A stretch of DNA of 64,000 nt, from contig JACRMP010000025.1 of the NCBI GenBank assembly GCA_016214885.1, forward strand, positions 44,025 through 108,024, in the 5' to 3' direction. Positions 12,155 to 13,906 of this stretch are shown here, in pieces (positions within the stretch are counted from its first letter, which is position 1; the number at the start of each line of letters is the position of its first letter). Source of the stretch: Candidatus Gottesmanbacteria bacterium. GTDB taxonomy: Bacteria; Patescibacteriota; Microgenomatia; UBA10105; UBA927. The notes beneath the pieces are model-generated. The model did no database searches and had not been told where the DNA came from. It worked only from the letters and a program-made list of their open reading frames with translations. The translations under genes and the position numbers were made by a program.

Positions 12155-13906
12155 TGAGAGTTTGATCCTGGCTCAGGATGAACGCTGGCGGCGTGCCTTA
12201 AGCATGCAAGTCGAACGGAAATTTGTCGCAAGACGGAAATCAGTGGCGGACGGGTGAGTATAAGTAAGGAACGTACCCTGAAGTATCGCATAGCTCGTCG
12301 AAAGACGGGGTAATACGGTATGTGAACGCAAGTTCAAAGAGGCTAACCCCTCGCTTTTGGAGCGGCCTTATATCTATCAGCTAGTTGGTGGGGTAATTGC
12401 CTACCAAGGCTACGACGGATAGGGGGTGTGAGAGCACGACCCCCCACAATGGCACTGAGACACGGGCCATACATCTACGGATGGCAGCAACTGGGAATAT
12501 TCGGCAATGGACGAAAGTCTGACCGAGCGACGCCGCGTGAGGGATGAAGGTTTTCGGATCGTAAACCTCTTTTGCCAAGCAGTCGATGCTTGGAGAATAA
12601 GCACCTACAAACTACGTGACCCCGGTAAGGGGTTTGGTGCGTAGTCATACAGCAATGTAATGAAAGAAAATCTCGCTATATGCTGGAACACCTTGATATA
12701 CCGCGAATTATTTCCGCCACGGGGGCGGGACATGTATCAAGACAATCAGCAGGCAACCTCCTTTTTTATAATCGGAGAGAGTCCTCAGAGACTACACGCG
12801 AGACTCCATCAATGTGATGGATGATGATATAGTCCAAAGTTTTGCACAAGAAAGTATTACCTGTGCAAGGCCAGCAGTCGCGGTAATACGTAGGGTGCAA
12901 GCGTTATCCGGATTCACTGGGCGTAAAGTGTCGTGTAGGCGGTATGCCGCATCGTGTCTGAAAGCCCGAGGCTTAACCTCGGCGTTGGACACGAGATGGG
13001 TAAACTAAGAGGAGTGGAGAGGAAAGGGGAACTCATGGTGAAGCAGTGAAATGCGTTGATATCATGAGGAACACCGAAGGCGAAGGCACCTTTCTGGCCA
13101 CTAACTGACGCTGAGACACGAAAGCTAGGGGAGCGAAGCAGATTAGAGACCTGCGTAGTCCTAGCCCTAAACGCATGTCTGCTAGATGCCCTGCCGCAAG
13201 GTGGGGTGTCGTAAGCTAACGCGTTAAGCAGACCGCCTGGGGACTACGAGCGCAAGCTTAAAACTCAAAGGAATTGACGGGGACCCGCACAACCAGTGGA
13301 GCGTGTGGTTCAATTCGAGACAAAGCGAAGGACCTCACCAGGGTTTGACATGCTACCGTTTTAAGTCGCCAGAAATGGTGACCTATCCGCAAGGATGGTA
13401 GCACAGCTGCTGCATGGCTGTCGTCAGCTCGTGCCGTGGGGTGTTCCCTTAAGTGGGACAACGAGCGCAACCCCTATCCGATGTTACAAGTGTCATCGGA
13501 GACCGCCCCCTCACTAAGTACAGAATTATTTTCTGTGTTTGGAGAGGGGGAGGAAGGAGGGGACGACGTCAAGTCAGCACGGCGCTTATGCCCTGGGCTA
13601 CACACACCCTACAATGGCGAACAACAATGAGACGCAAGGCGGCAACGTCAAGCAAATCTCTGAAATTTCGCCTCAATTCAGATTGAGGGCTGCAACTCGC
13701 CCTCATGAAGTTGGAATTGGTAGTAATCGCAGATCAGCAGGCTGCGGTGAATACGTTCTCGGGTCTTGTACACACCGCCCGTCAAGCCACCAAAGTTGAA
13801 GGTACCCGAAGGTTCGCATTTGCGAGTCGAAGGTAAATTCAGCGATGGGGACTAAGTCGTAACAAGGTATCCCTAGCCGAAGCTGGGGATGGATCACCTC
13901 CTTTCT
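12155..13906 (+). rRNA. rrs: 16S ribosomal RNA, ~1.75 kb including a ~250-nt insertion
   Basis: 5' AGAGTTTGATCCTGGCTCAG, the 515 region CCAGCAGTCGCGGTAATAC, the 1390 region TGTACACACCGCCCGTC, and 3' GGATCACCTCCTTTCT. Confidence 0.92.

Follow-up and report, generated by a model that had tools for sequence, protein, structure and literature searches.

A compact group I intron without an open reading frame after position 516 of the 16S rRNA gene in a Candidatus Gottesmanbacteria genome

The stretch of DNA analysed here (the window) comprises 64,000 nucleotides of contig JACRMP010000025.1 of assembly GCA_016214885.1, from a Candidatus Gottesmanbacteria bacterium of the Candidate Phyla Radiation (CPR), and contains a 16S ribosomal RNA (rRNA) gene that is interrupted by about 250 nucleotides (nt). 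With high confidence, this insert is a compact group I intron that lacks an open reading frame (ORF) and is predicted to act as a self-splicing ribozyme, immediately after U516 of the gene. Its family membership, boundaries, fold, covariation and optional distribution are established in the following sections. The element is of a well-documented kind that has already been catalogued for CPR 16S genes and is not new.

The 16S rRNA gene and its insert

A full-length match to the bacterial small-subunit (SSU) rRNA covariance model (RF00177) extends over window positions 12150–13904 on the forward strand (1301.6 bits), corresponding to a gene of 1755 nt by Rfam, slightly longer than the 1752 nt given in an earlier note on this stretch. 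In the alignment, a single insert of 256 nt stands opposite four model positions, between ...AACUACGUG and GCGGUAAUAC. The remainder of the gene is collinear with the model and, without the block, has a length of 1503 nt. No expansion spread across several helices appears in this alignment, and the single block agrees with the proposal in the earlier note of one discrete insertion of about 250 nt on the 5' side of the 515 region.

The insertion point lies in the 530 loop (helix 18), which is universally conserved, and separates two neighbouring nucleotides. The model sequence at this site is GUGCCAGC and the 5' exon ends in the U of ...CGU|G, which places the insertion after SSU position 516 of Escherichia coli, the numbering being taken from the standard 515F primer site. 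The 5' exon (12150–12617) ends in U516, the base that forms the U12617·G12639 wobble described below, and the 3' exon (12870–13904) starts at G517, with its first bases (GCCAG, 12870–12874) serving as the P10 partner.

The insert was also said to contain no ORF, and this is borne out: of the mechanically called ORFs that overlap the block, on either strand, the four longest have 54, 45, 44 and 42 amino acids and produced no Pfam matches, even at E ≤ 1. Relative to the E. coli 16S gene, this 252-nt ORF-less insertion exceeds the minimum of 100 bp in the catalogue of CPR insertions (PMC11270868), and it matches RF00028. The CPR host deduced earlier is likewise confirmed by an exon-only comparison over exon positions 95–1110, in which the nearest 16S genes belong to Candidatus Gottesmanbacteria metagenome-assembled genomes (MAGs), namely L021 (UBA5942; 97.4% identity) and L022 (92.9%); handles of this type denote loci of the comparison set.

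Identity, boundaries and fold of the insert

The Rfam family of group I catalytic introns (RF00028) matches the window at 12608–12854 over the complete model (positions 1–253 of 253). The score is 70.3 bits (cut-off, 50), and the E value is 8e-16 for the complete window and 4.7e-18 for the local region. Group II intron families produced no match at threshold in the window and none at E ≤ 1 in the region 12560–12930. A match to the ssNA-helicase RNA family at 12842–12882 (19 bits against a cut-off of 41.5, E = 0.36), overlapping helix P9, was dismissed as noise.

A G is present at both junctions, and the alignment alone is compatible with an insert at either 12619–12870, as given in the earlier note, or 12618–12869. 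The pairing of each intron with its exons was evaluated using a guide-search script, which looks for a G able to pair with the terminal U of the exon and then extends the pairing in both directions. For the window intron this yields an internal guide sequence at 12634–12645 (5'-UUGGU|GCGUAGU-3') that pairs with both exons. Its 3' part (GCGUAGU, 12639–12645) forms P1 with ACUACGU of the 5' exon (12611–12617; 7 bp, including the U12617·G12639 wobble), and its 5' part (UUGGU, 12634–12638), directly adjoining the P1 part, forms P10 with GCCAG of the 3' exon (12870–12874; 5 bp). The total of 12 bp compares with four for the runner-up site in this intron. Because the guide pairs with both exons and G12869 reads as omegaG, the final intron nucleotide, the intron is assigned to 12618–12869 (252 nt, forward strand), following U516; the group I rules therefore move the earlier coordinates by one nucleotide to the left. 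The predicted ligated junction across the exons is ...CAAACTACGT|GCCAGCAGTCGC....

These features bear on two other origins of the insert. A lineage-specific expansion segment retained in the mature small-subunit rRNA would accord with the description of CPR rRNAs as structurally unlike those of model bacteria (introduction of PMC11270868), but the extra sequence is a single block at one phosphodiester bond and is not spread over helices, relatives whose 16S is 96.8% identical do not have it, it splits the 530 loop of the decoding centre and it matches a ribozyme family with the E value above; the probability of this origin is negligible. An intervening sequence of the RNase III type, excised without religation to leave a fragmented 16S rRNA, has precedents in bacterial rRNA genes, and many short CPR insertions fit neither intron class (PMC11270868). 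The insert ends are, however, unpaired (at most 5 nt of complementarity between the first and the last 45 nt, no more than expected by chance), the site lies inside a conserved functional loop rather than at the tip of a variable hairpin, and a complete group I core is present together with a guide for both exons, so that this explanation is highly improbable.

Secondary-structure folding, which had been proposed earlier as a check, supports assignment to the group I family. A full P1–P9 structure was written in window coordinates and checked pair by pair, and all of its pairs are canonical in the window; all elements lie on the forward strand. P1 (12612–12618 with 12638–12644 in the written structure) is capped by the hairpin P1b (12619–12633, ACCCC GGUAA GGGGU) and is followed by the P2 hairpin (12645–12663). 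P3 (12671–12676 with 12798–12803) forms a pseudoknot with P7 (12788 and 12790–12794 with 12830–12835, A12789 being bulged). P4 (12681–12686 with 12746–12751) encloses the P5–P5a–P5b arm, in which P5 pairs 12692–12700 with 12733–12741 and P5b pairs 12713–12718 with 12724–12729; P6 (12752–12753 with 12783–12784) and P6a (12758–12761 with 12774–12777) lie downstream. J6/7, the 5' strand of P7 and J7/3 occupy 12785–12797 (UCAGAGACUACAC), the P8 hairpin occupies 12805–12821, and J8/7 with the 3' strand of P7 occupies 12822–12835 (UGAUGAUA UAGUCC). The P9 hairpin (12842–12868, UUGCACA ... UGUGCAA) abuts omegaG. The hairpin-forming inverted repeats noticed previously are the stems of P1b, P2, P5/P5b, P6a, P8 and P9, and an unconstrained minimum free energy (MFE) fold recovers P5/P5b, P8 and P9.

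Covariation was counted on an alignment of 14 homologous sequences. Base-anchored columns of alignment A1 served for this purpose, with P1/P10 handled by a script run on each sequence, in preference to a covariance model, because MAFFT had placed P1, the hairpin tips and P9 of the distant introns out of register. The fraction of paired cells is 85.1%, compared with 72.2% for column shuffles (none of 500 shuffles reaches the observed value) and 38–45% when the partners are slid by one to three columns. Both sides change in 33 of the 52 pairs, and the covariation score of 0.322 compares with 0.065–0.119 for the slid partners. This signal is carried by P2, P3, P5, P6a, P8 and P9. Changes on both sides are found in all six pairs of P2, all nine of P5, three of P6a and all six of P8; P3 pairing is kept across homologs in the variants UCUCGC/GCGAGA, UCUAAC/GUUAGA, UUUCAC/GUGGAA and UCUCAC/GUGAGA; and in L021, L022 and L023 all seven pairs of P9 are kept, with compensatory changes. 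In L023 P1b reads AUUCGAU/AUCGGAU with pairing kept (from alignment A3, by eye and without a formal count).

The catalytic core behaves differently from these stems. The strands UAUAUGCUGG, AUCAGCAGG, CCUCAGAGACU and GAUAUAGUCCA are invariant or nearly so in the 14-sequence alignment, as is the segment 12785–12797, and the P4, P6, P7, J6/7 and J8/7 strands show this behaviour across at least four phyla. P4 is essentially invariant, with five of its six pairs never varying and the remaining pair varying on one side, P6 is invariant, and GAUAUAGUCC in the segment at 12822–12835 does not change in the 14 homologs. The invariance of the core, together with the compensatory changes in the stems, therefore indicates ongoing selection on the fold. 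UCAGAGACUACA and GAUAUAGUCC of the window intron would correspond to the classical R and S consensus of group I introns, and P7, with its bulged A and the G–C pair after it, presumably mirrors the guanosine site of Tetrahymena; on these assumptions, the R and S elements and the layout of P7 look IC-like.

Homologs at the S516 site and mobility of the intron

Homologs at the same site (S516) were sought in one genome per species using the pattern GATATAGTC-N(20–50)-GCCAGCAGYCGCGGTAA. A group I-type core ending at the same bond is present in 19 genomes, and 15 of the 19 loci follow the arrangement ...GU|G...G|GCCAGCAG, with the same terminal omegaG as in the window. An Rfam scan that covered nine of the homologous loci called RF00028 inside the SSU genes of L021, L022, L023, L016, L024 and L009. 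The guide/exon pair is GCGUAG/CUACGU in Gottesmanbacteria and Levybacteria, GCGGAG/CUCCGU in Omnitrophota and GCAGAAUUA/UAAUUCUGU in L019. The guide thus changes in step with the host exon across phyla, which is direct comparative evidence of its reading the exon.

The same loci bear on a possible assembly artefact, in which an unrelated intron would have been joined to the 16S gene. Ribosomal RNA genes are frequent break points in metagenome assemblies, and the Logan contigs of this organism that carry the adjacent HAD gene end a short distance downstream of the 16S gene and do not cover it. Nevertheless, homologous introns occur at the same bond in 19 independently assembled species-representative genomes and the guide is complementary to the host's own exon variant CUACGU, making a chimera exceedingly improbable.

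Homologous S516 introns are also found outside the CPR, in three Omnitrophota MAGs and one Planctomycetales MAG; L009, L010, L011, L024 and L008 are from MAGs labelled Planctomycetales, Omnitrophota or Bdellovibrionaceae. The Bdellovibrionaceae MAG has an insert at the same site with the same core motif, which ends in A and scores below the Rfam threshold. The reading of the insertion as a CPR hallmark and lineage clue consequently holds for the type of insertion and for the host but not as an exclusive trait, given its occurrence in Omnitrophota and Planctomycetales. The introns of L009, L010, L011 and L024 are 66–71% identical to the window intron, approximately the same as the exon identity, and these values are compatible with both recent transfer and ancient vertical descent. 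Two of these non-CPR loci (L009 and L010) are ordinary 16S-tRNA-tRNA-23S operons.

The intron is optional. The exact predicted ligated junction, AAGCACCTACAAACTACGT|GCCAGCAGTCGCGGTAATAC, occurs free of any insert in 62 metagenome contigs. In a tree of 16S exons, carriers and non-carriers of the intron are intermixed, and the intron-less L066, the 16S of which is 96.8% identical, groups tightly with the window and L021. Three long S516 homologs (L014, L015 and L017; 884–921 nt) each contain a LAGLIDADG_2 ORF (PF03161, E values of 1e-33 to 1e-41), and no homing endonuclease ORF was found in the window intron using the ORF list and Pfam at E ≤ 1. Because the endonuclease gene is absent, the window copy cannot home on its own; it is an optional, endonuclease-less member (a non-autonomous derivative) of a mobile S516 intron family.

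Within the group formed by the window, L021, L022 and L023, intron identity to the window (91, 88 and 77%, respectively) drops with host identity, which fits mainly vertical descent with occasional loss. The 16S sisters L020 and L022, on the other hand, carry S516 introns of different architecture: that of L022 (6333–6593) has P2 and a 54-nt P5 domain, whereas that of L020 (754–1044) is without P2 and has a 97-nt P5 domain, as in the Levybacteria locus L016. This difference suggests replacement or independent acquisition at the same site.

Several homologs depart from the window intron in their ends. In four loci (L008, 1207–1550; L012, 714–1112; L017, 219–1163; L019, 382–754) an A takes the place of the G immediately before GCCAGCAG, with good P1 and P10 pairing. 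These may be omegaA variants or may use a shifted 3' splice site; a Coxiella 23S intron without a canonical omegaG has been described, as cited in PMC11270868. Four other introns (L024, 418–690; L010, 4262–4520; L013, 1619–1957; L018, 44–358) begin with GCCAGC, resembling the 3' exon, and show perfect 12-nt complementarity of taxon-specific sequence between the 5' end and the extreme 3' end, where the window intron has only 5 nt of such complementarity. The GCCAGC start is better explained by mimicry of the 3' exon, since the same guide pairs with both, and the 12-nt pairing might juxtapose the splice sites or aid circularization. A transposon or miniature inverted-repeat element, marked by a direct GCCAGC repeat and terminal inverted repeats, was considered on account of these homologs and rejected for the window, which has neither feature.

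Further observations concern the surroundings of the site in related genomes. The intron of L021 (1716–2072, reverse strand; 342 nt) is 91% identical to that of the window and has an extra AT-rich block of ∼90 nt bearing repeats in the P6 loop, which could be a remnant of an endonuclease gene or a secondary insertion. Three loci without an S516 intron (L062, 1454–1505; L034, 4273–4324; L029, 617–668) contain an 85%-identical match to the P4'–P6 segment of the window intron (intron positions 123–177) about 500 nt downstream of the 516 junction, so that another position in their 16S genes may be occupied by a related group I intron. In the Levybacteria locus L016, a match to group II intron domains D1–D4 (RF01998, 50.4 bits) is located at 5604–5693 on the reverse strand, just past the 3' end of the SSU match.

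Predicted splicing, known systems and practical meaning

Catalytic activity, with guanosine-dependent self-splicing, exon ligation and removal of the intron from the mature rRNA, is predicted from the features described above. In the precursor rRNA, the guide (12634–12645) would pair with the last seven bases of the 5' exon to form P1, with U12617·G12639 marking the 5' splice site, while the P3–P9 core would fold around the P3/P7 pseudoknot. An exogenous guanosine bound in P7, presumably at the G12790–C12834 pair by analogy to G264–C311 of Tetrahymena, would attack after U12617. G12869 would then take the place of the guanosine and the 3' exon would dock on the same guide through P10, such that ligation of the exons would give ...CUACGU|GCCAGCAG... 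and a normal 530 loop.

Splicing is considered probable because the core is intact and under purifying selection, because CPR bacteria usually have a single rRNA copy, the decoding-centre loop of which could not tolerate 252 additional nt, and because CPR rRNA insertions have been reported to be missing from transcripts (PMC11270868). Of the two fates offered in the earlier note for insertions of this kind, excision, here with exon ligation, is the expected one, and toleration within the ribosome is disfavoured by the intact core and the position in the 530 loop.

Several points weigh against this interpretation. P4, P6 and P7 are invariant or nearly so and hence individually uninformative on covariation. 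The gain in MFE of the isolated RNA over shuffled sequences is modest (z = −2.77), and the resulting fold misses the pseudoknotted core and so cannot decide the structure alone. The pairing percentages of P3 and P9 are lowered by distant homologs, some of which are misaligned by MAFFT. P9 abuts omegaG without a spacer, an uncommon arrangement, and no P9.0 was identified in the intron structure. The case for splicing itself draws on the intact core and on the argument that a ribosome could not function with a 252-nt insert in the 530 loop.

An alternative is a group I-derived element that no longer self-splices, either requiring a trans-acting protein (a maturase or host factor) or being splicing-dead in a non-functional 16S copy. 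The intron contains no maturase or endonuclease ORF, its activity is deduced from sequence, P9 directly adjoins omegaG, which is unusual, and a single 16S gene is visible in the window. Against loss of self-splicing, all elements of the catalytic core are intact, little or no variation is seen in the core strands across phyla whereas the stems undergo compensatory change, and the guide still matches its own exons perfectly. A single rRNA copy is, moreover, usual in the CPR (PMC11270868), and a dead intron in the 530 loop of that copy would kill the cell. Such a degenerate element is therefore very unlikely, and a self-splicing group I intron remains the strongly favoured reading.

Brown et al. 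in 2015 reportedly described the class of CPR 16S insertions to which the window intron belongs. In the survey by Tsurumaki et al. (2024; PMC11270868), insertions were present in 48% of CPR 16S genes and 134 of the insertions were group I introns, of which 49 were ORF-less and 43 had LAGLIDADG_2; several of the sites were previously unreported in bacteria and CPR genomes were found to have usually one rRNA copy. The window intron shows no essential difference from this catalogue, which it resembles in its Microgenomates-group CPR host, its location in a 16S gene, its match to RF00028, its ORF-less state, its relatives with LAGLIDADG_2 (the commonest endonuclease there) and its sporadic distribution. 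Site 516 may correspond to hot-spot 16IS5, judging from the association with LAGLIDADG_2; the catalogue gives positions 16IS1–10 in figures only. Group I introns of rRNA genes are known from 15 bacterial phyla according to a 2026 survey (PMC13011429).

Experimentally demonstrated splicing of bacterial 16S group I introns is available from Thiomargarita, where some carry LAGLIDADG genes (Salman et al., 2012, as cited in PMC11270868); unlike the CPR bacteria, this host is a gammaproteobacterium. The Tetrahymena large-subunit intron (IC1, ∼413 nt) resides in a different host gene and at a different site, and the 252-nt window intron is without its P2.1, P5abc and P9.1/9.2 elements. Nuclear S516 introns of eukaryotes (IC1 and IE), which occur in Naegleria, myxomycetes, fungi and algae with His-Cys box endonucleases (PMC9223047), share with the window intron the insertion point, the U·G wobble in P1, a guanosine-binding P7 and the P1–P10 core, as well as a life cycle of endonuclease gain and loss and of intron loss. 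They differ in that the window host gene is a bacterial SSU gene and the endonuclease of its relatives is LAGLIDADG_2 rather than His-Cys; many of them are also much larger, with P2.1 and P9 extensions or twin ribozymes.

These likenesses raise the question of whether the bacterial S516 introns constitute one mobile lineage across the CPR, Omnitrophota, Planctomycetota and Bdellovibrionota that has an evolutionary link with the S516 IC1 introns of eukaryotic nuclei. This is considered unlikely. Limited support comes from the identity of the intron cores between Gottesmanbacteria and Omnitrophota (66–75%, with an exon identity of ∼70%), from the swap of architecture between 16S sisters and from the R and S elements in common with IC1. 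If such a lineage did exist, episymbiotic CPR bacteria would be a reservoir or bridge for intron transfer across domains.

The intron affects primer binding less than was supposed. On genomic DNA, three positions of 515F (GTGYCAGCMGCCGCGGTAA) are mismatched: 1 and 2 because of the intron, and 11 because of a C-to-T exon substitution; on the spliced sequence position 11 is the sole mismatch. The remaining 17 bases of the site, including those at the 3' end of the primer, are uninterrupted in the 3' exon. Lineage substitutions account for all of the mismatches of primers 806R (two) and 341F (three). Of the mismatches at 515F and 806R, those at 515F positions 1 and 2 alone are caused by the intron, and for this element the statement that such insertions foil 515F-based surveys was overstated, since only the two 5'-most primer bases are removed and the 515F–806R product is intron-free. 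The 16S gene also has a U at E. coli position 525 (window position 12878) and an A at 506 (about 12607), both of which are common to the Gottesmanbacteria and Levybacteria relatives; from the E. coli numbering, C525U appears to be compensated by G506A in the 505–507/524–526 pseudoknot of the 530 loop.

The rRNA genes are unlinked in the window, in contrast to those of L009 and L010, with neither spacer tRNAs nor a 23S gene following the 16S gene (13905–19974). A tRNA-Cys (17365–17437, reverse strand) and a tRNA-Ile(GAT) (19898–19974, forward strand) are located within ∼6 kb, amid genes of the HAD and YfhO families. Elsewhere in the window, a glmS ribozyme match (RF00234, 39919–40131, reverse strand) lies directly upstream of glmS (38034–39842, reverse strand), which encodes glucosamine-6-phosphate synthase with SIS and GATase domains. 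This match is borderline in score (40.5 bits against a cut-off of 37) and is 213 nt long for a model of 167 positions.

For practical purposes, 16S annotation and phylogenetic placement of this MAG require excision of exactly 12618–12869. Amplicons that span position 516, such as those of variable regions V3–V4 or of full-length 16S, are 252 bp longer, and 515F–806R amplicons do not contain the intron. The 19 homologs at the same site, with guides that track the exons, constitute a clean small system for the study of intron–host co-adaptation. The window intron would be a further example of small CPR genomes keeping introns, self-splicing as judged from their preserved features, at the functional heart of their only 16S gene.

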